From contig JAUVXV010000007.1 of assembly GCA_030603365.1 (NCBI GenBank), forward strand, positions 64,001 to 128,000: a DNA stretch of 64,000 bases, in the 5' to 3' direction. The stretch is from Candidatus Heimdallarchaeota archaeon (GTDB lineage Archaea > Asgardarchaeota > Heimdallarchaeia > Heimdallarchaeales > Heimdallarchaeaceae). Positions 20,572 through 37,210 of this stretch are shown here, in pieces (position 1 is the first letter of the stretch; every line of letters begins with the position of its first letter). A program made the position numbers and the translations under genes. Under the pieces are notes generated by a model. The model saw only the letters and a list, made by a program, of their open reading frames with translations, was not told the DNA's origin and did not search any database.

Positions 20572-21183
20572 TTGATGATACAAAATATAATTATAACACA
20601 TCATAGTGGGCTACCTCTTTTTGGACGATCGTTAATGTGCCATATAGGAGTGCATTGTGCAGATTTATCAAAGGATAACACATTTACAGATGAAACTTTG
20701 TTGAATTCTGCTCTATTAAATGCAATGCTTATTTTTGATCAAGCAAATCCTAATGATTTCCATGAATTTGAAATGGAAAAAGCAAAAACGCTAACATTTC
20801 CCACAGAAAAAATTACTGTTATAATGTATGCAGATCCAGAAGACAATTTAGAACAATATAAGAACAGATTAAGATTGTTTGCTGACTTGTTTACAAAGCA
20901 ATATGGGTATCTTCTAGATGATTTCTCCGGAGATGTCAGCCCATTTGGAGATTTTCAGAATATTATTGTAAAGGAAGGCTTACTTGAAGAAGGAGAAAGA
21001 TTCAGGAAAAATTGTGTTGAGTGTACTTATGACAAACATTGTGCATTTAGAATCACTGTTGCCGCACCCAATAAAACATTTAAAGAGATTTTTGATTCTA
21101 TTTATCCAAGTAGCATCTTCAAGAAAATGTGGTTGATTCTTATTGGTATGTTTAAGCCAAAATATTTTCCATTATATTCTTAA
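20572..21183 (+). CDS. Longin-like domain protein with Cys/His clusters
   Basis: MIQNIIITHHSGLPLFGR start, LNSALLNAM helix, F...Y...L..FSGDVS.F..F; CHIGVHC insert and CVECTYDKHC. Confidence 0.6.
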   Translation: MMIQNIIITHHSGLPLFGRSLMCHIGVHCADLSKDNTFTDETLLNSALLNAMLIFDQANPNDFHEFEMEKAKTLTFPTEKITVIMYADPEDNLEQYKNRLRLFADLFTKQYGYLLDDFSGDVSPFGDFQNIIVKEGLLEEGERFRKNCVECTYDKHCAFRITVAAPNKTFKEIFDSIYPSSIFKKMWLILIGMFKPKYFPLYS

Positions 21184-22184
21184 TTAGCTTTATTCCTTTT
21201 GTTAGTTTTCTTATTCTTTCTATAATAAGGAGAACGAAATATAAGAAATAATTGTGCTAATGGACTAACCAAACCTATGAGGAATCTACGGAATTTTATA
21301 CGACTTTCGAACTCTTTTGCAAAGCCTTCCATCGTATATCTTTGATATTGTAAAATTCCTTGAGAATCGTCAGTATACAACCAGTCTGTGTGAAACCAAT
21401 CTTTATCATGTTGAGGTTCTTTAAAACATTCTCTGGGGATAGGACCAACTCCAAAAGATTTTAACAATCTTGTTATATATTCACCAGCAAGCATTTGACA
21501 TTTTTCTCCCCCTGCTAAATTCATTATTTTGTGATTGATATCTACATTAATTGCATTCACACATGCTAACCCAACATCCCAAGTATGAATAAATTCTAAT
21601 CGTTGATCGAAAGGTACTTCAAACATCAGAGAAGGTATTTTCATTGGCATTCTGAGTGAAGGAACAGCTGTTAATCGCAAAATTATCCAATCTAAGGAAC
21701 TTGCTTGAAGAATTTTTTCCATTTCCCATTTCTGAAAAGCATAAAGATCATGAGAGATAGGTACTATTTCATCTGTAACATATCTTGGGGGAGGCATATG
21801 CATTTTAGAGCCATAGATAGCTAAAGAACTAGTAAAGATGATTTTAGGTTTCTTCTCAAGTTTTTCAGCTGCATCAACAAGATTCTTCATACCCCCTGCA
21901 TTAACCTCGGTAGCATAATCTGGATTTTCATCAGCTTCGGGAGGAATAATTGCTGCTAGATGGATTACATAATCCACGTCTTGTACGATTCTTTCTACAT
22001 CTGTTTTGTTTCGAATATCTCCCCAAATAGTCTTAAAATTACCTTTCTTTGACATGATTTTTTGAATTTTTTTAGTATGTTTAGTCTTCTTATCAAAACA
22101 TCTAACATCATATCCACGTTCTAATAGAAGTCCTAGTGTACTCTCACCTACATTCCCAAATGGACCTGTTAATAAAATCTTCAT
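21180..22184 (-). CDS. Extended SDR, NAD-dependent epimerase/dehydratase (3-beta-HSD-like)
   Basis: TGPFGNVG, HLAA, TSS, YAFQK (YxxxK). Confidence 0.85.
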   Translation of the reverse strand: MKILLTGPFGNVGESTLGLLLERGYDVRCFDKKTKHTKKIQKIMSKKGNFKTIWGDIRNKTDVERIVQDVDYVIHLAAIIPPEADENPDYATEVNAGGMKNLVDAAEKLEKKPKIIFTSSLAIYGSKMHMPPPRYVTDEIVPISHDLYAFQKWEMEKILQASSLDWIILRLTAVPSLRMPMKIPSLMFEVPFDQRLEFIHTWDVGLACVNAINVDINHKIMNLAGGEKCQMLAGEYITRLLKSFGVGPIPRECFKEPQHDKDWFHTDWLYTDDSQGILQYQRYTMEGFAKEFESRIKFRRFLIGLVSPLAQLFLIFRSPYYRKNKKTNKRNKAN

Positions 22185-26520: not shown

Positions 26521-27930
26521 TTAAATCAGCTTCATTAAAAGAGGATTACGCTTAAGTGCTAATCCTATTGCCTTATTTACAAAACTTTTAGGAAAACCTG
26601 AATGCTCGAATAAATTTTGAAAAAGTAATTCTGCTTGCTCTTGCGAATAAAGAGAGAATGAAGTGATAATATATGACATTGAAACTAGTTTTCTTAATTC
26701 ATTAAAGATTTCAATTGCAGTTTTATTAATATCTTTATCAATATTCTTCTCATATAATCCAAAAAAGTACTCACTTGCTTGATGACCTTTAACACTACCT
26801 TCAATGAGATTGATAACAACTATCTCACCAAGCTGATTTTTTGTTAGGATAAGTTTATCAAAGAGTTCTTTGTTCATCCCACATAATCCAACATCAAGTT
26901 CTGAAACAATATTAATTGCATCTTCTTCATTATCTACCCATCCTTTAACTTTTATTGCGAGGTGTTGGTTGAAAATTGAGAGTGTATCAATTGTTATCTT
27001 AACTGTTAATTTATCACCTACAACAATCACTTTTTTTCCTGTTGTTACGGAATACAATACTTGATCTAGATTTTTTAATATAGCATTTGAAAGATACGCT
27101 AATGATAATTCCTCAACATCGGTATGAGTAAAATGGTTCCCAGAATCTTCTATATTTTGAATAAGATCGAGAACATCTAACATTTCAAATCTATAATCTT
27201 GATCAGATAGAATACGCAGTTTCTCCTCAATCAAAGGAAACAATCTGAAAACTGTATGATCTAACTCTGGAGAAAACCTCAGTATTCCTACGTTTGTCCT
27301 CATTTCATCCTTCTCAATAACTAATAGTTCTGAAGTTTTTTTCTCAGGAACAAATAACAGAAGTCCTGTTAACTGATTTTCAAAATCATATTTGATTCTA
27401 TGGTTAATAATCATATCAAGTGTTTCTTTGGCTTCTACTTTTTTACCAACAGATTCAATTATTTCAGTGTCTGTTTCATCAAAATGAATCAAACTAAACA
27501 CCTTGGGTTCTGATTCTCGTAAAGGATTTTTAGAGAAGAATAGAGGTAAATTGTAGATATCATGCAAAATGTGTTCGAGTATTAGAGCTGCTTCTCCTTC
27601 AGAAATCAGATTTTCATCCCTATCTTCAAGCAAAGGACTTGCACTGAAATGAATTTGTTCCAGGATTTGTTCAAGATGTCGCTCTGAGAATAGAGTTTCT
27701 TCTACTTTAGTTTCAAGAATAAAAATAAAATCATAAACTTCAACAAAGGAGATGTTTTTGTCATGATAAGAAATTGATTGAAGTTCTTGACGGTGAACTT
27801 CTTTAGCGAAAGTGATAATTGCACTAATCAAACCTGAGGCTAAGATGTGCCTAGTATCATCAGCTGATTCGGGTTTAGTAGCTAACAACAATCCTGAACC
27901 TGAAACCAGTGAAAGTTGCAAGTTTCGCAT
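26521..27930 (-). CDS. Longin + cDENN/dDENN-like protein, paralogue B
   Basis: N-terminal SGLLLA...LASGLISAIITFAKEV longin motif; NLDQVLYSVTTGKKVIVVGDK..VK..ID.LSIF cDENN-like motif. Colinear with 28788..30194. Confidence 0.65.
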   Translation of the reverse strand: MRNLQLSLVSGSGLLLATKPESADDTRHILASGLISAIITFAKEVHRQELQSISYHDKNISFVEVYDFIFILETKVEETLFSERHLEQILEQIHFSASPLLEDRDENLISEGEAALILEHILHDIYNLPLFFSKNPLRESEPKVFSLIHFDETDTEIIESVGKKVEAKETLDMIINHRIKYDFENQLTGLLLFVPEKKTSELLVIEKDEMRTNVGILRFSPELDHTVFRLFPLIEEKLRILSDQDYRFEMLDVLDLIQNIEDSGNHFTHTDVEELSLAYLSNAILKNLDQVLYSVTTGKKVIVVGDKLTVKITIDTLSIFNQHLAIKVKGWVDNEEDAINIVSELDVGLCGMNKELFDKLILTKNQLGEIVVINLIEGSVKGHQASEYFFGLYEKNIDKDINKTAIEIFNELRKLVSMSYIITSFSLYSQEQAELLFQNLFEHSGFPKSFVNKAIGLALKRNPLLMKLI

Positions 27931-28024
27931 AGTTATTTCATTTAAAGTATCATTTAAGTAAATTTCTTTAGTGCTAATCCATTGAGAAAGATTTTTTTTT
28001 GGAAAGAAAATATCTTAATCCCGA

Positions 28025-28780
28025 ATGAAAACTAGCACTATCCTCTATCAAGAACTAGTTCATAATGCTTGGGCTGCAGAGCATAATGTTCTCTATAAAG
28101 GATGGATATTAAGACTATCAGAAGGGATTACACAAAGAGCAAATAGTGTTCTAACAATCAGATATCTGGGAAATGATGTAATAACTGATATTCGTAATAT
28201 AGAAAATATATTTCAGAGTAGAAATCTTCCGCCTATTTTTCAAGTAGCAGATTATTTTGAACCTTCTAATCTAATTAAAATTTTGATTGGTGAAGGATAT
28301 CATGCCAGAGATGAAACTATAGTTATGAGTAGAAGTACTGAAATATCACAGAATATTGAAAAAAATGAAAATTTGACTTATTTGATTGAGGAAGGAGTCC
28401 CAGATATATGGTTTAAATCATTAACTAAATTTAGTTCCTCATCTGAAATAAGGATTAAAGGTATCGAGAATATAATTAGCAGATCTTCTGCAGAGAAAAT
28501 AACATGTTTTGCTCAAGATGGTAATGAGATAACAGGAATAGTTTTAGGACTTAGGGAAGGAGATTATATTGGGATATATAATCTAACAGTGGATTCCCAA
28601 AGAAGAAGAGAAAGAATCGGTAAGAGCATAATGTTGAAACTAATGGATTGGGCACACAAAAGCAATATAGGGGTGGTTTATCTTGCTGTAGAAGATGACA
28701 ATGTAGGTGCTCGAAAATTATACCAAAAGCTGAATTTTGAAGAGAAATTCAAATACAGATATTTTGTTAGAGAAGAATAA
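28025..28780 (+). CDS. GNAT family N-acetyltransferase
   Basis: NAW.A...GW.LR...G.T.RANSV N-terminus; V....RR..IG and N.GA.KLY.KL.F motifs. Confidence 0.88.
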   Translation: MKTSTILYQELVHNAWAAEHNVLYKGWILRLSEGITQRANSVLTIRYLGNDVITDIRNIENIFQSRNLPPIFQVADYFEPSNLIKILIGEGYHARDETIVMSRSTEISQNIEKNENLTYLIEEGVPDIWFKSLTKFSSSSEIRIKGIENIISRSSAEKITCFAQDGNEITGIVLGLREGDYIGIYNLTVDSQRRRERIGKSIMLKLMDWAHKSNIGVVYLAVEDDNVGARKLYQKLNFEEKFKYRYFVREE

Positions 28781-28787
28781 ATGAATA

Positions 28788-30194
28788 TTAGAGCAGATAG
28801 TCCAAAAGAGGGTTTCTTCTTACTGCCATTTCTAATGCTTTCTTAATAAAAGTTGAAGAATATCCTGATTGAGAACTTATCTCTTTCAATTTCTGTTTAC
28901 CTTTTACTTCATCTACTAAACTAATTGATGTCATATCAAGAGAAAGTGCTACTAGTTTTTCCAGATCTAGAGCTATTTTTGTAACTATTTCTGCTATTGA
29001 TAGTTTCTTTATTGTATCAAATAATTTTTTGAAATGATGGCTTGATTTAGCTCCAGTAACTCGACTATTTACTAGATTGATGCATACATCTGTTTCCTTA
29101 ATTGTTTCACTACTTAGGAGCGCGTTATAAATTTCTGTAGACATTCCACACATTCTAGCCGAAAGATCACACTTTCCATTTTGAGAAAAATCGTCAGCAG
29201 ATATCCACAAATTGACAGAAGTTTGTAGGTGCTGTGTGAATATGGACATAGAATCAATAACAAGTTTTACTGTTGGTTTATCTCCTACAATGAAAATTGG
29301 TTCTCCAATAACTGCAGAATAAATTGCTTTATCAAGATTACGTCCTACAGTTCTAACTAAGAATGAAGGAGATAAATCCTCTAGATTTATTCTTGATAAT
29401 CGATTTCCTGGATCATCGATGTCTTTTAACGTGTTTAATATGCGTTCCATACTCAAAATTTCTTTGTCTTCTGACATTACTGAAAGCATTCTATCCATCA
29501 TAGTAAACAGCCTGAATAACACCAAATCTAATTCACGTGATATCTTTAAAATTCCTACACGAGAAGTTTTTCCATCTGTGTCAATAACAGTATATGTAGT
29601 ACTCTTTTCTTCAGGTATATGTGTTAGTATTCCTTTTAACCCATTAATACATTTTTCATTTGCTTTTAAGGTATCAAGCATCAATGCAATTGTTGGTATA
29701 AATGATCCGGAACCCACCTTATCTTTAATTTCCCAACCTTTGTCTGTATGAAATAATGTGAAATAAGCACTTTCTGACATTTTTAGAGGTTGTTCAGTGA
29801 TTGAATAATGTAATAATTGAACACCTTGTAGACATTTATCTAGAATTATAGCAGCTTCTCCTTCAGTTATTATATTTGGGTCAACTCCTTCTAGAATTGG
29901 TTCTGTACATTCTTTTAACTGTTGGAGTAATTGTCCAAGCTTTTGTTCAGAAAGTGTTGCTTCTTCATCAATAGTTTCCAAAATTAAGACGAATTCGTGT
30001 ACTCTTACAAATGAAACAGTACGATCATGATAAGAGATAGACTGTAATTCTCTATGATGTACTTCTTTAGAAAAAGAAATCAATGCTGTCATTAAGCCTG
30101 TTGCTAAAATCTGTCTTGTATCATCTACAGCTTCAGGTTTTGAAGCTAGAAGTATACCTGAAGAAGTAACAAGAGATATCTTAATGTTTAGCAT
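28788..30194 (-). CDS. Longin + cDENN/dDENN-like protein, paralogue A
   Basis: SGILLA...LATGLMTALISFSKEV longin motif; NLDKAIYSAVIGEPIFIVGDKPTVKLVIDSMSIF; CGM; helical C-terminus ending RNPLL. Confidence 0.65.
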   Translation of the reverse strand: MLNIKISLVTSSGILLASKPEAVDDTRQILATGLMTALISFSKEVHHRELQSISYHDRTVSFVRVHEFVLILETIDEEATLSEQKLGQLLQQLKECTEPILEGVDPNIITEGEAAIILDKCLQGVQLLHYSITEQPLKMSESAYFTLFHTDKGWEIKDKVGSGSFIPTIALMLDTLKANEKCINGLKGILTHIPEEKSTTYTVIDTDGKTSRVGILKISRELDLVLFRLFTMMDRMLSVMSEDKEILSMERILNTLKDIDDPGNRLSRINLEDLSPSFLVRTVGRNLDKAIYSAVIGEPIFIVGDKPTVKLVIDSMSIFTQHLQTSVNLWISADDFSQNGKCDLSARMCGMSTEIYNALLSSETIKETDVCINLVNSRVTGAKSSHHFKKLFDTIKKLSIAEIVTKIALDLEKLVALSLDMTSISLVDEVKGKQKLKEISSQSGYSSTFIKKALEMAVRRNPLLDYLL

Positions 30195-30299
30195 TAGGTG
30201 GTTTTAGAAATTAGTTATATAAATAAATTTACTTTAGACTAAGAGCAGAAAAATCAAGTTAGTATTAATAATAATTGAAGAAAAAGATAGAAAATAAAC

Positions 30300-30485
30300 T
30301 TATTTCATGTTCTTTTCTTGATTTCGTTTATCACGAATCTCATCTAGTACTTCAAGAGTGATGGTAGCTACACCTCTCTCCTTAGCTTGTTCTACTATTT
30401 GAGTCATAGCTTTTTTCAAGAAAACCCTAGTAATAGTGACTATTTTTGCGCAAGCTTTATCTGTCCAATAAACCTCGGAATCTAG
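30300..30485 (-). pseudogene. PCP_red-like (protochlorophyllide reductase C-terminal type) small domain with no in-frame start
   Basis: DSEVYWTDKACAKI...VFLKKAMTQIVEQAKERGVATITLEVLDEIR fits W..eA..........A.e.G...IT.e. Bounded upstream by TGA with no ATG/GTG/TTG. Confidence 0.45.
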
Positions 30486-30501
30486 TCACTTGTCAATATT
30501 A

Positions 30502-31335
30502 TCAGTTCTTAGTATTTTGTTGATATTGCATTTCAAACCAAGATTTCTTTCGTATCAACTTTCTGTACCAAGCTGGCATTACCCACCCAAGATACATTGC
30601 AACATAAGCTGTTGCATATGAGATTGCTCGAAAAGCTGAAATTGTAATCATCAAAGCTGGAATATTAGGAATACTACCATGCAAAGCTGAAAACAACCAC
30701 GCTAATAGATATAAAAACACTCCAACACTAATTGTTTGTAATCCTCTCTTTCTAATAGGGTGATCTGATTTTCTTGCAAGCCTAAAAGCTCTAAATCCTA
30801 TTCTACCTGTAACAAAAATTGAGACTACTATTTGGACTAAAAGGATGGGCCAAGTATATGAAATTGCAAATACATTCTTAGTGATGTAGGTTGGTTCAGA
30901 ATACAATGAATGTGTATATATATTATCATAAGCAATTACAGCAGTAACAATACCATAAACTACCATTATTACAGCAAAAATATAGGTTTTGATAATTTCA
31001 TTATCTTTTAAAATATGTCTACAGCCAAAGAAATAGAGAAATGCAAATGCAGGGAGGATAATTAATGGAGTTAAAGACCCTATCTGATAAATAGTATCAG
31101 TCATCACACCTTCATTGTAAATGAGCGAAATACGGTATGCAATACTAAAAGCTGATGCTAAAGAAAATAGGAAGTAGGATGAAAGTAACATGAATGTGCC
31201 TACAGTTTTCTTGCGAAAGAAGTTGACTAAGAGCGTGATAACTAGTGCTAGACTGAAAGCCATGTTTATTACAGATGTAATAATTATGAAAAATGATGCA
31301 GGTTCTATTGCTGAAAGATCTACCATCATCATCAC
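30502..31335 (-). CDS. Seven-transmembrane receptor-like protein
   Basis: Seven hydrophobic helices, basic loop RAFRLARKSDHPIRKRG between TM5 and TM6, YLGWVMPAWYRK after TM7. The start abuts the GTPase stop. Confidence 0.75.
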   Translation of the reverse strand: MMMMVDLSAIEPASFFIIITSVINMAFSLALVITLLVNFFRKKTVGTFMLLSSYFLFSLASAFSIAYRISLIYNEGVMTDTIYQIGSLTPLIILPAFAFLYFFGCRHILKDNEIIKTYIFAVIMVVYGIVTAVIAYDNIYTHSLYSEPTYITKNVFAISYTWPILLVQIVVSIFVTGRIGFRAFRLARKSDHPIRKRGLQTISVGVFLYLLAWLFSALHGSIPNIPALMITISAFRAISYATAYVAMYLGWVMPAWYRKLIRKKSWFEMQYQQNTKN

Positions 31336-31860
31336 CTAGACAAACTCATCAACAAACCATTTGAAGGCATTGAATATTCCTTCTCCTGTCTTTGCTGAGG
31401 TTTCAAAAACTGCCCATTTAAAAGGTAAATCCAACAACTTGAATTCTTCAATAAAGAGTGATTTTTCTATAACATCAGATTCATCACTCTTATTGAGTAA
31501 AATTAATATTATCAAATCTTGATCCAATTGTGCGTGAATGGTTTGTTCAAACACATCCTTTGCCTCATCAAATCTCATAATATTAGATCGATCAATAACG
31601 AATACAATTCCATCAGATTTTTCGTTGATATTGTGCCACATATTTCTGAAATCTTCCTGACCAGCTAAATCAAAAACGTTAATTTGTAAATTTGGTAAGT
31701 GTAAGGTTTCTCTATTCACACCCATAGTTGGAGTTGTTTCAACGAATTCACCAGTTTCTAGAAACTTTAGTATAGTTGTTTTACCAGCATCATCTAGACC
31801 ACAGATTGTTATATCTGCATGTTTTGTTCTGCTTCGAAATAGGTTTAGTAAGAACGACAT
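31336..31860 (-). CDS. Arf-family (ArfR-like) small GTPase
   Basis: Amphipathic N-terminus MSFLLNLFR, G1 GLDDAGKTT, G2 PTMG, G3 FDLAGQEDFRNMW, G4 NKSD, G5 ETSAK. Confidence 0.92.
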   Translation of the reverse strand: MSFLLNLFRSRTKHADITICGLDDAGKTTILKFLETGEFVETTPTMGVNRETLHLPNLQINVFDLAGQEDFRNMWHNINEKSDGIVFVIDRSNIMRFDEAKDVFEQTIHAQLDQDLIILILLNKSDESDVIEKSLFIEEFKLLDLPFKWAVFETSAKTGEGIFNAFKWFVDEFV

Positions 31861-31873
31861 ATTTTTCCCTCAA

Positions 31874-32368
31874 CTAATCCCACAAATCATCAGATAGCTT
31901 ATCTATCGCATTACCATTCTTGTCATTTCCTTGTTTTGGAAAATCAAATTTTATGGTTGACGTAGAAGTTATCTCTATTTTGAACTGTCCTTTGCTAAAT
32001 CCTTTGTAAAGTTTCGGTAAAATTCCTTCCAAAGTACTGGTTGCCAATAGATCTTTCTTTTCAAGTTCTGTTACTACCCAAGAGAACACTTGTTTAATAG
32101 AAGTAGCATCATAATCAGTCGTATTGAATACAGCAACTAATGAAGCAAGATTATCTCTTTGATCAGCAGTAGGTATGCGAAATATATAACTTGTCAAATT
32201 TAGATCATTAAAAGTCGTTGAAGCAAAATCCCCTGGGTTTGATCCCATCGGGATAGTTTTGTAAACAAGCTGACTCATTGAATCAGTAGGTATAACATCG
32301 GGGAAAGATTTGACTAACTCTAATCCCCTTGCGCCCATATTAATTAGACATAAACTTAATGGTTTCAC
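31874..32368 (-). CDS. Stand-alone uDENN/longin-like protein
   Basis: LCLINMGARGLELVKSFP (beta1-beta2), then YIFRIPTADQRDNLASLVAVF (beta4-loop-beta5), then helices. Ends 13 nt upstream of the GTPase. Confidence 0.55.
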   Translation of the reverse strand: MKPLSLCLINMGARGLELVKSFPDVIPTDSMSQLVYKTIPMGSNPGDFASTTFNDLNLTSYIFRIPTADQRDNLASLVAVFNTTDYDATSIKQVFSWVVTELEKKDLLATSTLEGILPKLYKGFSKGQFKIEITSTSTIKFDFPKQGNDKNGNAIDKLSDDLWD

Positions 32369-32476
32369 TCAAATCCCCTTACTATTACTCAAAACAGTTC
32401 ATCCGTTTAAATATCTTTTTAAAACTGCAAAACGCTATTTCTAAGGGGTTTATCCGCGATTTCAAGCATTTTCGAA

Positions 32477-32532
32477 TGTGCAGAGAAATGCACAATTGAC
32501 GTTTTATTGAACGATGTTCAGTCTAATGCACA
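32477..32532. promoter_or_regulatory. Two palindromic sites TGT(G/T)CA-N6-TGCACA in the divergent promoter region
   Basis: TGTGCA-gagaaa-TGCACA at 32477-32494 and TGTTCA-gtctaa-TGCACA at 32515-32532. Confidence 0.5.
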
Positions 32533-32806
32533 AATTTAATTTTATTGACTTTAAAAAAACAATAAAAAGAATAATGAAATAGCTAATATATTAGCAGATA
32601 GCACATTCATTTAATTGTTTAGTTAATTTTTTTAGGATTACAGAGCCCACATACTTACAAAATTCTTAGGTTTGAAGTAGTCTGCTGACAAAAAAAATTA
32701 GTGCAGTTTTCCTAAACAAACTCACGTTGATTGGATAGCTTTATAAATTTCTTAGGAAGAAATGTGTTTGGTTAAAGATTTAATTTTAACTGAATGGTGA
32801 AATTAA

Positions 32807-34225
32807 ATGGAAAAAGATTATGTTTTTGATCTATTAAACAAAGCAGTTGATCAAGGTCATAAACTTGGTGCAGACTTTTTAGAAGCTAGATATGATGATT
32901 TACAATTAACTACAATAAATTTAACAAATGATATCATTAAACAATCCTCTTCTATAAATAGAAAAGGTATTGGTGTTATGGCTTATTATCAAGGTACACC
33001 AGGTTATAGTTTTACTCCTGAATTAAGTTCAGAAGGTGTGGCAGAAGCTACAAAGAAAGCAGTAAAACTAGCAAAGTCAACTGATATAAGAAATAAGCTT
33101 AAGCTTGATTTTGATAAGATTAAACCAATCAAAGATCATATAGAAGTTAAAGCTAAAAAACATCCAAAAGACTATGAATTTGATGATAAACTCGCTATGC
33201 TAAAACGAGGAGTTTCAGCCATCAAAGAACAAGTAGATGCAACAAGTACTACTGGAATGTATGGAGAGATGTATGGTGAAAAGTTCTTCATTAATTCTGA
33301 AGGATCTGAGATTTATTGGGTTCCAATGATTGTTGACATGAGAATGGTTGCTGTTCTAATTAGTGAAGGACAACAAGCAATGGGTGCAGAAGGAATAGGA
33401 GCTTCTAAAGGTCTTGAGCACTTTGATGAAAAAGGACGTTCTCCAGAAGACTTCGGAACTATTGCAGGAAAAGACTGTAAAGATTCTTTGAACGCTGTTG
33501 CAGCTCCTACTGGCAAAACAACAACTCTTGTATCTCCTCAAATGGGAGGAGTAGTTGTTCATGAATCATTTGGTCATTTATCAGAAGCAGACTTTGTTGT
33601 TACTGGTCAATCTCCAATTGCAGATAGAGTGGGTGAACAACTTGGAAGTGAGCATGTTACAATTATCGATGAAGGCGTTCCTGAACAAGGAGGTTTGTTC
33701 TTTCCATATGATGATCAAGGAACTAAAACTGGAAAAACCGTTCTAGTTGAAGATGGAATTCTGAAAGGATATCTTCATAATAGAGGTACTGCTAAGAAAA
33801 TGAACTCTGAATTAACTGGAAACTGCAGGGCAATAAACTTCTTGTATAATCCTATAGTACGAATGAAAAATACTTACTTTGGAGCAGGAAATCTAACTTT
33901 TGAAGAAGCTCTAGAAGAAGTAGGTACAGGAATATATGCAGTAGATATGTCTGGAGGACAAGTTGGATTAGATGGAAACTTCATGTTCAATTGTCGCAAA
34001 GGATATCTCATCGAAAATGGAGAGATAACTAAACCCATAAAAAATTCCTCTTTATCTGGAAATATTTTAGAATTACTCAAATATATTAAAGGTGCAACCA
34101 AAGATATTGAAATTCGAACTGGTTATTTTGGTGGATGTGGTAAAAATGGTCAAAATGGTTTACCTGTTGGTTTAGGTGGTCCTAATGTAATTATGGATCA
34201 AGTTCTTGTTGGAGGTGCTCAATAA
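32807..34225 (+). CDS. tldD: TldD metalloprotease subunit, copy 1
   Basis: HESFGHLSEAD (HExxxH), YDDQG, RMKNTY, GGCGK..Q..PVG.GGP. Confidence 0.92.
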   Translation: MEKDYVFDLLNKAVDQGHKLGADFLEARYDDLQLTTINLTNDIIKQSSSINRKGIGVMAYYQGTPGYSFTPELSSEGVAEATKKAVKLAKSTDIRNKLKLDFDKIKPIKDHIEVKAKKHPKDYEFDDKLAMLKRGVSAIKEQVDATSTTGMYGEMYGEKFFINSEGSEIYWVPMIVDMRMVAVLISEGQQAMGAEGIGASKGLEHFDEKGRSPEDFGTIAGKDCKDSLNAVAAPTGKTTTLVSPQMGGVVVHESFGHLSEADFVVTGQSPIADRVGEQLGSEHVTIIDEGVPEQGGLFFPYDDQGTKTGKTVLVEDGILKGYLHNRGTAKKMNSELTGNCRAINFLYNPIVRMKNTYFGAGNLTFEEALEEVGTGIYAVDMSGGQVGLDGNFMFNCRKGYLIENGEITKPIKNSSLSGNILELLKYIKGATKDIEIRTGYFGGCGKNGQNGLPVGLGGPNVIMDQVLVGGAQ

Positions 34226-35601
34226 TGTCCTTAGATGATCTTAGAAATAAAATTTTGAATATTGCCGATACAACTATTAAACACTCTAGAGACTTAAATA
34301 TTCCCTCAACAGAAGTATTTGTTCTAGAACAATCTACAACAAACTTAACCGATAATAAAGGTAAAGTTGATAGTAGAGATGGATTAGTTCAAGGAATAGG
34401 TATCAGAGTAGCAGTAGGTAAGAAACTAGGATTTGCAAGTTGTACAGGATTTGATGAAGAAACAATTAAATCCACTCTTAAACAAGCTCACAGTATTGCC
34501 AATGTAAGTCCTGAAAATCCAATGTTCAATGGTTTTGTAGCTGAAACCAAAATGTCAAAAGAAGGTATTTTAGACCCAGATATCCCACATCTTGATGCAG
34601 ATGATCTAATCGAGAAATGCAATATTATGAATCAAGAAGTTGATCTAAGTGACAGAAGGATTATTTCAGGAAGTTTTGGTGCTAATATTGCATATCAGGG
34701 ATTTGCAATTGCAACTACTGAAGGATGCTTAGCTTCTTCTCTTCAAACAACATTTGGAGCTAATTCTTACTTTGTTGTTACTGATGCTGGAGACCGAAAA
34801 ACAGCTCAAGATTTTGTAGCAGCAAGGAAAGTAGAATCAGTTGAAGGAATTGCTCCTAAAGCACTCAATAAAGCAATTAGTTCCTTGGGATCCAAAGCTT
34901 TTGGAGGATCAGAAGTTCTACCAACCATTTGGGAACCTCGTGAATCTGCTCCATTTCTAGCATTTGCATTTTTCAATGTTTTCTCAGGATCTGCTTATGT
35001 AGAAAAAAGCAATCCATGGAAAGAAAAATTGAATGAAAAGGTGGCTGTAAAAGAATTGACTGTTATTGATGATGGTCAAAAACCTGATACTGAAGCTTGT
35101 CAATCTATTGATGCTGAAGGTACTCCAAAACAAACAACTGCTATCATAGAAGATGGAGTATTGAAGACTTTTCTATTTAATAAAATGTACGGAGATGCTG
35201 CTGGTTTTAGTACTACAGGAAATGCACAGCGAGGAGGAATCTTTGGTGGCACACCTTACGAAAATATACCTGTTGTAGGACCAAATCAGATGATGATTAA
35301 AGAAGTCGCAAAAAACCTTGAAGAACAGATCTCAGAAATAGATAAAGGAATTCTTATTACTGGAACACCAATTGGGTTGTTTACAGCTAATCCTGTTACA
35401 GGTGACTTCAGTGTTACATGCAATGATACATTTCTAATTGAAAAAGGAGAAAAAGTTCATCCTCTGAAATCTATAAGTATTGCAGGGAACTACTTTGAGA
35501 CCTTGAATAATATCCGTTTCATTGGAAATGACACAGAACAATCTGGATGGCCGATTGATGCTCCAAGTATGACCTTTCTGAACCATACAATCTCAGATTA
35601 A
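34225..35601 (+). CDS. tldE: TldE/PmbA subunit, copy 1
   Basis: GIGIRV, DAEG.P, TGNA.R, TGDFS, SIAGN; no HExxxH. Confidence 0.88.
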   Translation: MSLDDLRNKILNIADTTIKHSRDLNIPSTEVFVLEQSTTNLTDNKGKVDSRDGLVQGIGIRVAVGKKLGFASCTGFDEETIKSTLKQAHSIANVSPENPMFNGFVAETKMSKEGILDPDIPHLDADDLIEKCNIMNQEVDLSDRRIISGSFGANIAYQGFAIATTEGCLASSLQTTFGANSYFVVTDAGDRKTAQDFVAARKVESVEGIAPKALNKAISSLGSKAFGGSEVLPTIWEPRESAPFLAFAFFNVFSGSAYVEKSNPWKEKLNEKVAVKELTVIDDGQKPDTEACQSIDAEGTPKQTTAIIEDGVLKTFLFNKMYGDAAGFSTTGNAQRGGIFGGTPYENIPVVGPNQMMIKEVAKNLEEQISEIDKGILITGTPIGLFTANPVTGDFSVTCNDTFLIEKGEKVHPLKSISIAGNYFETLNNIRFIGNDTEQSGWPIDAPSMTFLNHTISD

Positions 35602-35785
35602 ATTCTTCTTTTCCTTTCTTTTTTTATTATTTAACCAATCGGTTTTGAATAATTTTATAAATATCCTAAGCATGAAAATTTCAATCCTAATCATGTTTAC
35701 AAATATTCTTAACATGATAATGTGACCGACTTGTGACCAGTTACTTAAAGTAAAGTGCTCAAACAAGTACTTATAGAAACACAAG

Positions 35786-37210
35786 GTGAAAATAGTGGAA
35801 AATGATTATGTTTTTGATCTATTACATAAAGCAGTTGATCAAGGTCATAAACTAGGTGCAGATTTTGTAGAGGCAAGGTACGATGATTTAACCTTAACAA
35901 CTATAAACTATACAAATGAAAAGGTTCGAGAATCTTCTACTAAACAACGTAGAGGAATAGGTGTTATGACATATGTCAAGGGTTCTCCCGGATATTCATT
36001 TACACCAGACATAACTTCAGAAGCAATTCAAGAAACCACAAAACGGTCTCTTGGGATAGCAAAAGCTACTGAACCTCTTTTAACTTTTAAGCACATTTAT
36101 GATGATCGATCTTCGATCAAAGATTCAATTGTAAAGAAAGTAAAAATTCATCCTAAGGAAGTTGAATTTGACGAAAAACTTGACATGCTTAAGCGTGGAA
36201 TAGCTAACGCTAAGGATCAGGTTGATGCTCAATCTACAACAGGTATGTGGGGAGAACTCTGGGGAGATAAATTATTTGTAAACTCTGAACAATCTGAGAT
36301 TTATTGGACCCCACTCTTGTTTGATCTACGTATAATGGCAGTTGCTATGACTGAAACTTCTCAAGCTCGTGGTTCTGATGGAGTAGGACAATCTCAAGGG
36401 ATGGAATATTTTGATATTGAAGCTCACAGCCCTGAAACTCTAGGAACCAATGCTGGTAAATGGTGCAAAGAGCAAATTGATGCTGTTTCTGCTCCACCAG
36501 GAAAACATAGAGCTTTAGTAGGACCAAGAATGGCAGGTGTTCTTGCACATGAAAGTTTTGGTCACCTCTCTGAAACTGATTTTGTTATTACTGGTATGTC
36601 TCCAATTTCAGATAGAGTAGGAGAACAACTTGGAACTGAGCATGCGACTATCATTGATGAAGGTATTACAAAAGAAGGTGGATTCTTCTTACCTTATGAT
36701 GATCAAGGAACTAAAACTGGAAAAACCGTTCTAATGGACAAGGGTATGCTACTGGGTTATCTACATGATAGAAGTACAGCTAATAAAATGAATACTGAAC
36801 CTACTGGAAATTCTAGAGCTATTACTTTTATGTTCCCATCGATACCAAGAATGAAAAATACTTATTTCAAGCCTGGAAACATAAGTTTTGATGAAGCTGT
36901 AGAACAAGTTGGAGATGGTCTCTATACAGCTGGAACTTCAGGAGGTCAAACAGACCTTGATGGTACATTTCTGTTCAAATGTAGTCGTGGATACCTGATT
37001 GAAAATGGCGAGATTACCAAACCTATCAAAGATGCTGCACTCTCAGGTCAAATTCTAGAATTCATTCAACAAATTAGTGGAGTTACAAATGAGATGGACA
37101 TATTTACTAGTTACTTTGGCGGATGCGGAAAAGGTGGTCAATATCCTCTTCCAGTTGGATTAGGTGGACCTAGTCTGGTTGTTGATGAGGTTTTAGTTGG
37201 TGGTGAATGA
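35786..37210 (+). CDS. tldD: TldD metalloprotease subunit, copy 2
   Basis: HESFGHLSETD, RMKNTY, GGCGKGGQ.PLPVG.GGP. Confidence 0.92.
   Translation: MKIVENDYVFDLLHKAVDQGHKLGADFVEARYDDLTLTTINYTNEKVRESSTKQRRGIGVMTYVKGSPGYSFTPDITSEAIQETTKRSLGIAKATEPLLTFKHIYDDRSSIKDSIVKKVKIHPKEVEFDEKLDMLKRGIANAKDQVDAQSTTGMWGELWGDKLFVNSEQSEIYWTPLLFDLRIMAVAMTETSQARGSDGVGQSQGMEYFDIEAHSPETLGTNAGKWCKEQIDAVSAPPGKHRALVGPRMAGVLAHESFGHLSETDFVITGMSPISDRVGEQLGTEHATIIDEGITKEGGFFLPYDDQGTKTGKTVLMDKGMLLGYLHDRSTANKMNTEPTGNSRAITFMFPSIPRMKNTYFKPGNISFDEAVEQVGDGLYTAGTSGGQTDLDGTFLFKCSRGYLIENGEITKPIKDAALSGQILEFIQQISGVTNEMDIFTSYFGGCGKGGQYPLPVGLGGPSLVVDEVLVGGE

Follow-up and report, generated by a model that had tools for sequence, protein, structure and literature searches.

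Among described systems, several of those closest to the locus reported here join a small GTPase to a regulator of the longin or roadblock fold. The locus lies in a 64,000-nt stretch of a Candidatus Heimdallarchaeota archaeon of the family Heimdallarchaeaceae (hereafter the window), which covers bases 64001-128000 of one contig in a host genome of 3.65 Mb and 89% completeness. It encodes a longin protein of 164 aa, an Arf-family GTPase (ArfR) and a protein with seven transmembrane helices (7TM), followed by two paralogous proteins of 468 and 469 aa. An initial reading of the same DNA, the first-pass annotation, had taken all five genes as a candidate forerunner of the pairing between G-protein-coupled receptors (GPCRs) and G proteins. 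In this work, we examined which of these genes belong together, what their products resemble and which mode of action would fit them best.

The nearest structural likeness is to GATOR1 (NPRL2-NPRL3-DEPDC5; RagA) and to Npr2 of SEACIT. Shared features are the N-terminal longin fold of NPRL2/Npr2 and, at our locus, the encoding of the longin beside a small GTPase with an intact catalytic Gln; the longin also has an invariant Arg within its beta4-beta5 loop, the loop in which NPRL2 carries its catalytic Arg78. In contrast to NPRL2, the longin here is a stand-alone domain, without the NPRL2 C-terminal part, an NPRL3-like partner, DEPDC5 or a match to Pfam NPR2; the GTPase is of the Arf rather than the Rag type, and the G-L motif, the acidic tail ending in Leu-Trp (LW) and the 7TM partner are further differences. 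A second likeness is to a GTPase-activating protein (GAP) brought to the membrane. The seven-helix transporter PQLC2 is reported to recruit the Arf GAP C9orf72-SMCR8-WDR41 in a receptor-like manner (PMC12290439 and its references PMC7039192 and PMC7923529). As may be the case at our locus, a longin-type Arf GAP is paired with a receptor-like multi-pass protein, and the 468-aa paralogues of the window give SMCR8_C, Folliculin and C9orf72 leads. However, PQLC2 is a PQ-loop transporter, whereas the protein here is a 7TM that matches GPCRs, with a single small longin, no WDR41-like propeller and operon linkage. In plants, the 7TM-RGS protein AtRGS1 controls its G protein by a tethered GAP and not in the role of guanine-nucleotide exchange factor (GEF) (PMC3718340, PMC5506085); the regulator at our locus differs in being a longin, on a separate polypeptide, instead of an RGS (regulator of G-protein signalling) box. 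With GPCRs and their heterotrimeric G proteins the locus shares seven helices in a GPCR-like bundle, an N-out/C-in orientation, a helix-8-like tail, a conserved cytoplasmic face and the tie to a GTPase, but there is no GPCR sequence homology and no DRY or NPxxY motif, and the GTPase is a plain Arf type without the helical domain or beta-gamma. By analogy, a 7TM-coupled GAP, as in AtRGS1 or in the recruitment of C9orf72-SMCR8 by PQLC2, would fit better than a GPCR acting as GEF.

Among prokaryotes, Liu et al. described an Asgard operon of a LAMTOR1-like roadblock protein, a Rab-like GTPase and a DENN protein, as well as FLCN-like proteins in Heimdallarchaea (bioRxiv 10.1101/2020.10.19.343400). 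A roadblock/longin-superfamily protein is there, too, joined to a small GTPase, and Heimdall-specific proteins occur in both settings, FLCN-like in the former and possibly FLCN/SMCR8-like in ours; that operon has no membrane protein, whereas ours combines ArfR, an NPRL2-like longin and a dedicated 7TM protein. MglA-MglB and other prokaryotic pairs of a GTPase with a roadblock GAP also have a small GTPase encoded with, or bound by, a roadblock/longin-fold regulator, and in SRbeta-SRX an Arf-related, membrane-tied GTPase is bound by the longin-like SRX, which appears weakly in our structural match lists. These two differ in GTPase subfamily and in the lack of a 7TM protein, and SRX and roadblock proteins align at Z 6.5-7 against 15.4 for NPRL2. 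Finally, HisKA_7TM (PF16927) domains are prokaryotic 7TM sensor modules and give the nearest folds in the ESM Atlas, but they are fused to kinase or cyclase outputs, while the 7TM protein here stands alone and its "output" would be encoded by the two upstream genes.

No published description of a longin-Arf-7TM operon was found in the searchable literature, and the words "operon", "neighbour/neighbor" and "transmembrane" do not occur in the text of two Asgard ArfR papers. A 2026 preprint, in the part that is accessible, lists GPCR-labelled and "7TM" structural clusters that join Asgard and eukaryotic proteins, with no link to a GTPase (bioRxiv 10.64898/2026.10.28.762692). Descriptions of Asgard Arf-related GTPases and of GAP-type longins are both recent, and PMC12290439 poses the question of whether the GAP-like longins of Heimdall archaea have ArfR or Rag GTPases as their clients.

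Linkage of the longin, Arf and 7TM genes

A profile of the 7TM protein was searched against 400 Asgard genomes, and the flanks of the full-length copies were then read. There were 33 such copies in 18 of the 400 genomes, all Heimdallarchaeia and all from two families (9 of 31 genomes in the family of the window, 9 of 12 in the second), with up to five copies per genome. A longin homologue is found immediately upstream of the 7TM gene in 32 of the 33, the remaining copy being located at a contig end. An intact Arf gene stands between longin and 7TM in 24 copies and an Arf fragment in 1; seven cassettes consist of longin and 7TM without an Arf gene. The triad was also found on independent metagenomic contigs, and an exhaustive profile search of 1.84 billion representatives yielded 142 relatives of the 7TM protein. 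For two remote members of this set (E 6e-17 and 4e-12), the preceding gene again encodes a longin of that family (hhalign values 99.1% and 98%), with no Arf gene in the pair. The synteny on which the first-pass annotation depended thus extends over two families and is retained both by paralogous cassettes and by distant relatives from metagenomes.

The cassettes occupy differing genomic contexts. Across 21 of them, the distance matrices of longin, Arf and 7TM correlate at r = 0.82-0.91, a statistic that is inflated by kinship, and the nearest neighbours are congruent. Paralogues within one genome group by cassette type and not by genome, so the cassette has been duplicated and has diverged as a unit. 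In the host genome there are only three longin-164-like genes, and 43 places match the Arf model at E <= 1e-5; with longin genes so few, chance adjacency can be excluded. Taken as sequence evidence, these results support a genuine functional unit of longin, Arf GTPase and 7TM protein. By the same evidence, it is the longin and not the GTPase that constantly accompanies the 7TM protein, since seven cassettes and the two distant pairs keep the longin in the absence of Arf.

Some further observations concern these genes. The two other longin-164-like genes of the host (contigs 13 and 16) have neighbours that are neither Arf nor of this 7TM family, and were set aside as uninformative. About a dozen of the 43 Arf-model places are strong Arf types, and several of this dozen lie in frames of 310-340 aa, possibly fusions. 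Near some Arf-less cassettes, another small-GTPase-like gene (228-250 aa) is located ~2 kb away (L044:7558-8244, L053:6684-7374, L047:1052-1804), and this longer gene may encode an alternative client. Signs of decay are an Arf fragment of 73 aa between longin and 7TM (L042:5115-5336) and a 7TM frame with two in-frame TAA stops (L024/L052; G084:C55:152444-153211).

The three proteins and a proposed 7TM-docked longin regulator

The AlphaFold2 (AF2) model of the 164-aa protein, made with a 26-sequence alignment, has longin topology with an extra hairpin and a disordered tail, at a mean predicted local distance difference test (pLDDT) of 82.7; its strands (E) and helices (H) are E5-12, E15-22, H28-38, E48-53, E56-65, E73-81, H88-104 and H110-126. 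The beta2-alpha-beta3-alpha2 arrangement of the longin fold is present, and longin domains dominate the list of structural matches. The best Foldseek match is NPRL2 in GATOR1 (E 2.2e-7, TM-score 0.72). With VIA, NPRL2 is first as well (Z 15.4, root-mean-square deviation (rmsd) 3.2 A, 150 residues aligned), then yeast Npr2 (Z 14.1), a Lokiarchaeal roadblock-longin (12.9), FLCN (10.6), DENND10 (10.5) and C9orf72/SMCR8 (9.4-9.7), with adaptor, SNARE and TRAPP longins at Z <=9. The nearest structural neighbours are therefore the catalytic GAP longins. In sequence, the protein gave no meaningful match in Pfam, in NCBIfam or in a profile search of PDB sequences. The label uDENN/longin, which the protein had been given at first, is only loosely right: a longin it is, but a single longin domain of NPRL2 type instead of a tripartite DENN architecture, with DENND1A and DENND10 aligning at Z 9.1-10.5 over their uDENN part.

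The same alignment shows invariant positions at the start of beta2 (G15-L16-E17), in the beta4-beta5 loop (R71), after it (N73) and at the C-terminus. R71, a candidate arginine finger, is present in 26 of 26 sequences, and is kept at L058, L060 and L073 too. At the other end of the protein, all 26 longins close with [DE][DE]-[LVIM]-W(-x) after a variable linker of low model confidence, DDLW(D) in the window. This LW tail is retained in cassettes without Arf. Only 17 of the 3,427 open reading frames (ORFs) of the host (0.5%) end in [LVIM]W(x), and the acidic context is found only in the 164-aa longin. Such a terminal hydrophobic-Trp peptide may be what docks the longin onto the 7TM protein's cytoplasmic face.

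Distant 7TM relatives of ~250 aa are spread across the Asgard phylum (L027:409-822, L028:503-1078, L030:429-842, L076:654-1112). At these four loci, a small roadblock-like neighbour ends in SLW or ALW, which suggests a wider theme of a 7TM protein plus an LW-tailed roadblock or longin protein. No such neighbour is found at L025, L026, L029, L031, L034-L036, L074 and L075. Weak and partial 7TM matches (E 1e-4 to 1e-10) were kept apart as a related but distinct family, because only some of them have the LW-tailed roadblock-like neighbour.

The identity of the 174-aa GTPase as an Arf-family member, asserted earlier, is borne out by a match to Pfam Arf (PF00025; E 8e-41, 139.8 bits against a cut-off of 22.3). 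Its best matches among PDB sequences are 8oun_A, a "GTP-binding protein" (3.5e-41) that we take to be an archaeal ArfR, and Arf1 (4.3e-41). The P-loop CGLDxAGKTT, the switch II motif DxxGQ(E/D)DFRxxW and the NKxD and SAK motifs are conserved among 21 operon-linked homologues, with the catalytic Gln68 invariant. A sub-threshold cross-match to Pfam G-alpha (E 3.6e-9) is usual for the Arf family, the presumed family of origin of G-alpha. The N-terminus of the homologues forms a conserved MSFLxxLF helix in which residue 2 is Ser; a myristoylatable Gly2 was looked for in this alignment and is absent. The same Gly is missing in other Asgard ArfRs (bioRxiv 10.1101/2024.02.28.582541), and ArfRs bind membranes in heterologous cells (bioRxiv 10.1101/2024.02.28.582541; PMC11914678).

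Hydropathy gives seven segments for the 7TM protein, and its AF2 model (pLDDT 85.7, predicted TM-score 0.79) has seven helices, a beta-hairpin in extracellular loop 2 and two short helices after the last transmembrane helix (TM7). The positive-inside rule places it N-out/C-in, and its TM5-TM6 loop is basic, with eight Arg/Lys in residues 178-197. The seven helices, the basic loop and the helix-8-like tail of the first-pass description thus stand. So does the absence of a fused output domain, across 142 relatives of 57-398 aa, the three longest of which were scanned without finding an added domain. Among PDB structures, the top 50 matches by Foldseek and VIA were all GPCRs, of classes A, B2, C, F and T (Foldseek best E 2.5e-4; VIA Z 15.5-13.0, rmsd ~4 A, 214-250 residues aligned). 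We read this as a GPCR-like fold and not as homology, because helical bundles reach such Z by common packing; a transporter or enzyme fold, the outcome that would have spoken against the earlier proposal, was not what the search returned. No match to the Pfam 7tm families was obtained at E up to 1, and CRHILxD at the end of TM3 and YLGWxMPxW at the end of TM7 resemble GPCR class motifs by position only.

In the ESM Atlas, the nearest predicted structures are HisKA_7TM domains and unnamed Promethearchaeota clusters (TM-score 0.67-0.77, rmsd 3.0-3.5). Homology to HisKA_7TM was rejected at the level of sequence, with no hmmscan match and an hhalign value of 1.7% against 12 Asgard HisKA_7TM domains, and no PF16927 match occurs in the host genome. 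Genuine HisKA_7TM histidine kinases (~600-1144 aa; L061-L072) are found in some Asgard lineages, mostly in one genus of the same class. A match to the NCBIfam "MAB_1171c putative transporter" (22.6 bits against a cut-off of 100) was treated as compositional or transmembrane in origin.

Conservation of the 7TM protein is strongly one-sided. Over 30 sequences, the cytoplasmic loops, helix ends and tail average 0.63, the helix middles 0.50 and the outer positions 0.36 (Mann-Whitney p 2e-16); of the 30 positions with the strongest conservation, 25 lie on the cytoplasmic side. The motifs concerned are KKTxGT in intracellular loop 1 (ICL1), YxFxxRHILxD at the end of TM3 and in ICL2, RKRGLQ in ICL3, YLGWxMPxW at the end of TM7, and the basic helix 8. 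A near-invariant Arg236 is buried in TM7, apart from which no conserved outer pocket was found in the protein. The variable outer face would fit either the lack of a ligand or a rapidly diversifying specificity among paralogues.

The most likely mechanism, to which we give about an even chance, has the 7TM protein as a membrane platform or receptor and the longin, docked on it, as the regulator of the ArfR switch, in the manner of a 7TM-coupled GAP. The conserved cytoplasmic face (ICL1, TM3 end/ICL2, ICL3, TM7 end/helix 8) would hold the longin at the membrane, most likely through the flexible acidic tail and its invariant hydrophobic-Trp end. The longin would act on ArfR, most likely as a GAP and less likely as a GEF, while ArfR-GTP would be held on the membrane by its N-terminal amphipathic helix. 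The place and time at which regulator and GTPase come together would then depend on the state of the 7TM protein (ligand, lipid or membrane). The 468-aa paralogues would probably be an accessory heterodimeric longin-type regulator confined to Heimdallarchaeaceae, without which the core could work. Gene linkage, folds and the pattern of conservation come from the analysis itself; we infer the physical contacts, the GAP direction and any ligand. The GAP direction is favoured because NPRL2/Npr2 match well above longins of the GEF type, R71 in the loop never varies, the catalytic Gln is intact in the GTPase and longins of the GAP type have been suggested to exist in Heimdallarchaeia (PMC12290439).

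The prediction of a three-chain complex of longin, Arf and 7TM, with custom alignments and the 7TM protein as the scored partner, lends weak support to such an assembly. The interface score ipSAE of the 7TM protein was 0.34 (runs 0.36, 0.27 and 0.34) against 0.00 in all three controls, among them the one with a substitute for Arf alone. Agreement between the runs covers at least 73% of contacts, with a partner pLDDT of at least 75. In the benchmark, whose counts are only roughly valid here given the custom alignments and three chains, 58 of 80 solved complexes reached the ipSAE mark, as did 2 of 110 mismatched pairs; those that reached it with an ipSAE <=0.60 were only 7 of the 80 solved complexes together with both passing mismatches.

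Several points weigh against a docked GAP. Many longins are GEFs. No match to PF06218 NPR2 or PF11704 Folliculin was obtained with the longin and its 26 homologues at E up to 10, nor did NPR2/Folliculin scans of the whole genome give a match on the longin gene. Absence of Arf from seven cassettes suggests that the GTPase may not always be the client, and the longin at L073 has no W tail although it is within a triad. The outer face of the 7TM protein is its least conserved part, with indels even within the genus, and Z of 13-15 for a helical bundle may reflect common packing. A predicted ipSAE of 0.34 falls in a range where predictions are wrong more often than right, and it came without a set of contacts. 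Finally, GAP-type longins carry a GP motif at the start of beta2 (PMC12290439), and at this site our longin reads G-L, with the Gly kept and the Pro replaced by Leu.

The altered GP motif bears directly on a different assignment of roles, in which the longin is a GEF or nucleotide-state adaptor, as in Mon1-Ccz1, TRAPP, DENN, Ragulator or SRX-SRbeta, the 7TM protein a passive anchor or cargo, and active ArfR is recruited to a site on the membrane for remodelling or trafficking without any sensing. Most longin/roadblock regulators are GEFs or platforms (PMC12290439), DENND1A, Mon1-Ccz1 and SRX are matched as well (Z about 6.5-9), and both the poorly conserved outer face of the 7TM protein and the membrane binding of ArfRs in heterologous cells would suit such an arrangement. 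We consider it rather unlikely, as NPRL2/Npr2 (Z 15.4/14.1) stand clearly above DENN and Mon1-Ccz1 longins (about 9-10.5 or lower), the loop Arg71 is invariant and the catalytic Gln of the GTPase is kept. Moreover, a bundle of seven helices that buries a near-invariant Arg is more than a passive anchor would require.

Gene order in the window and the 468/469-aa paralogues

The features of the locus are given in Table 1. All five ORFs of the first-pass annotation are present on the minus strand at the coordinates it gave.

Table 1. Features of the longin-Arf-7TM locus and its flanks (window coordinates)
Feature	Coordinates	Strand	Remarks
Paralogue B, 469 aa	26521-27930	(-)	38% identical to A
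GNAT acetyltransferase	28025-28780	(+)	Pfam Rv0428c_C 1.5e-16, Acetyltransf_1 1.6e-12
Paralogue A, 468 aa	28788-30194	(-)	roadblock/longin-like N-terminus; possible FLCN/SMCR8-type DENN-like C-terminal region
Flavin-reductase-like gene remnant, last 58 codons	30312-30485	(-)	found by tblastn
7TM gene, 277 aa from GTG / 274 aa from ATG 31326	30502-31335	(-)	
Arf-family GTPase gene, 174 aa	31336-31860	(-)	start 31860, stop TAG 31338-31336
Longin gene, 164 aa	31874-32368	(-)	stop codon at 31874-31876
Presumed promoter region	32369-32806	(-)	438-nt A/T-rich spacer, common to operon and divergent TldD/PmbA genes
TldD/PmbA-family paralogues, three consecutive	32807-37210	(+)	divergent from operon; syntenic in genus

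Within the triad, the genes are tightly packed. The 13-nt gap between longin and Arf is confirmed by the sequence and holds a GAGGG Shine-Dalgarno-like site. Directly 3' of the Arf stop codon the sequence reads GTG ATG ATG ATG. The 7TM start had been placed at the GTG, with a gap of 0 nt; we place it at ATG 31326, as AGGTGA sits 5 nt ahead of the third ATG and the protein of the nearest relative begins MVDLS, so that the gap is likely 9 nt. What remains of the earlier claim is the coupling itself, which is tight with either start, and the corresponding gap in relatives ranges from -1 to 9 nt. The alignment of 7TM proteins favours a start at or near 31326-31335. In the public gene call (P0001) the protein has 253 aa, a length at which it would start at an internal Met and lose most of TM1. 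Upstream of the longin gene, the A/T-rich spacer is presumed to be the operon promoter, with an A/T-rich box of TTTAAA type ~45 nt ahead of the start codon and AGGGGA as a Shine-Dalgarno-like site. A sigma-70 promoter scan was set aside as it does not apply to archaea, and terminator-like matches were not used.

Beyond the 7TM gene the packing ends. A gap of 307 nt, which contains the gene remnant, separates it from paralogue A, and the GNAT gene, on the opposite strand, parts paralogue A from paralogue B; the five genes are thus not one operon. The "one cluster" of the first-pass annotation is accordingly reduced to the longin-Arf-7TM unit. The GNAT gene, whose synteny is shared within the genus, is probably no member of the system. 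The remnant is 78-81% identical (tblastn E 2e-24 to 2e-26) to the C-terminal end of a flavin-reductase/PCP_red-like gene of 285 aa. At L004, at L006 and on a JGI contig, this gene is complete and stands between those for the 7TM protein and the first paralogue. The truncation looks like a lineage-specific deletion of ~225 codons.

Paralogues A and B (BLASTP 2e-114 over their full length) belong to a family of ~50 proteins whose named members are all from Heimdallarchaeota or Heimdallarchaeaceae, and which a second homologue search did not widen. Precomputed PF27109 SMCR8_C matches are present on 15 of 47 relatives, including the L006 orthologue of B at E <= 1e-5, and Intu_longin_1 is matched below threshold in 8 of 20 members. 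Language-model neighbours with Folliculin or C9orf72 domains (0.80-0.85) are leads only. The N-terminal domain resembles the roadblock-like partners of the distant 7TM proteins (hhalign 89.6% and 68.7%); homology between it and the 164-aa longin was not detected (hhalign 0.4%). PF11704 and the profile search of PDB sequences gave no match with the paralogues. A longin-DENN (FLCN/SMCR8-like) fold, in line with the longin-cDENN label of the first-pass annotation, or a tri-longin (Mon1/Ccz1-like) architecture is possible on these indirect grounds, with B a candidate heterodimer partner of A. One metagenomic relative, P0078 (564 aa), carries Lactamase_B (PF00753) and is the only fused form seen.

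The paralogues could nevertheless belong to the same pathway as the triad, as a heterodimeric GAP or GEF for ArfR comparable to FLCN-FNIP or C9orf72-SMCR8. In the genus of the window both are found downstream of the triad, co-oriented with it and conserved at its side throughout genus g1, and in another genus, one diverged cassette whose upstream flank differs has a single homologue of 452 aa located 88 nt after the 7TM gene. The SMCR8_C matches and the roadblock-like N-terminus point the same way. However, TldD/PmbA, the flavin-reductase-like gene, GNAT and an ABC transporter are equally syntenic in the genus, so adjacency of the paralogues could be inherited gene order. The cassettes of the second family have no homologue at all, and the linkage claimed earlier holds within the family of the window and not beyond it. 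Paralogue A, whose start is preceded by an A/T-rich box, is probably transcribed separately and is parted from the triad by the decayed gene, and no conserved Arg was found at the finger loop of the paralogues. A single five-gene pathway therefore seems doubtful to us, much as the adaptor role of the longin does.

Other genes recur near the cassettes. A leucine-rich-repeat protein of 200 aa is encoded directly 3' of the 7TM gene in one cassette type (L037:5060-5662, L038:3240-3842). Genes for NAD-dependent epimerases/dehydratases are found within a few kb of several triads (L055:342-1439, L037:5881-7838, L038:2-1533, L049:541-1530, L073:6167-7123) and at 21180-22184 of the window; this could be chance, the family being common, or could hint at a link with the sugar or lipid metabolism of the envelope.

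Receptor readings and the meaning of the cassette

The central proposal of the first-pass annotation made the 7TM protein a ligand-gated GEF or anchor for the Arf GTPase. In its GEF form, with the 7TM protein GPCR-like and acting directly on ArfR and the longin as the opposing GAP, it amounts to a proto pair of GPCR and G protein. Much of what was described above would suit this: GPCRs as the top 50 solved matches, a conserved cytoplasmic face with an invariant Arg at the end of TM3 and an aromatic/Pro motif at the end of TM7, an Arf gene that abuts the 7TM gene, the sub-threshold G-alpha cross-match of the Arf family, and an expansion of paralogues with variable outer loops that resembles receptor families. 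The loss of the 7TM ipSAE, from 0.34 to 0.00, on Arf replacement lends it weak support too, within the same benchmark as for the complex. Still, there is no sequence relation to the GPCR Pfam families and, Arg236 excepted, no conserved outer pocket was found, and no 7TM protein is known to act as a GEF for an Arf-family GTPase. The reading is weakened above all because the invariant partner of the 7TM protein is the longin and not the GTPase, as the seven cassettes and two distant pairs without Arf show. We regard it as improbable.

More speculative again, and in our estimation a long shot, is a family of GPCR-fold receptors that would signal through an Arf GTPase, the acidic-LW peptide inserting into the cytoplasmic cavity as the G-alpha C-terminus does. 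If this were true, the cassette would be a living analogue, and possibly a relic, of a stage before heterotrimeric G proteins, when 7TM receptors were first coupled to Arf-like switches, and the five diverged cassettes of one genome would be a small archaeal "receptor repertoire". That the genes are neighbours by descent only, with products that do not cooperate, is hardly credible when the longin adjoins the 7TM gene in 32 of 32 assessable loci, paralogous cassettes stand in different contexts, the three proteins co-diverge and their stop and start codons overlap or abut.

To return to the docked longin regulator, what is new here is that an Asgard module of small GTPase and longin, of a known kind, has a dedicated membrane partner of GPCR fold and a tail motif. 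For one subfamily, the operon offers a concrete answer, conserved repeatedly, to the question of the client: an NPRL2-like longin would be wired to ArfR. The proteins are small and expressible, and R71, the terminal LW, Q68, RHILxD and YLGWxMPxW are obvious targets for mutation. Experiments can thus address what brings an archaeal Arf switch to a membrane and controls it there, whether the GAP activity of longins is older than eukaryotes, and whether 7TM receptors were coupled to Arf-like GTPases in the archaeal relatives of eukaryotes. Even if the 7TM protein should be only an anchor, it would still be the first membrane receptor dedicated to a small-GTPase module of Asgard archaea.

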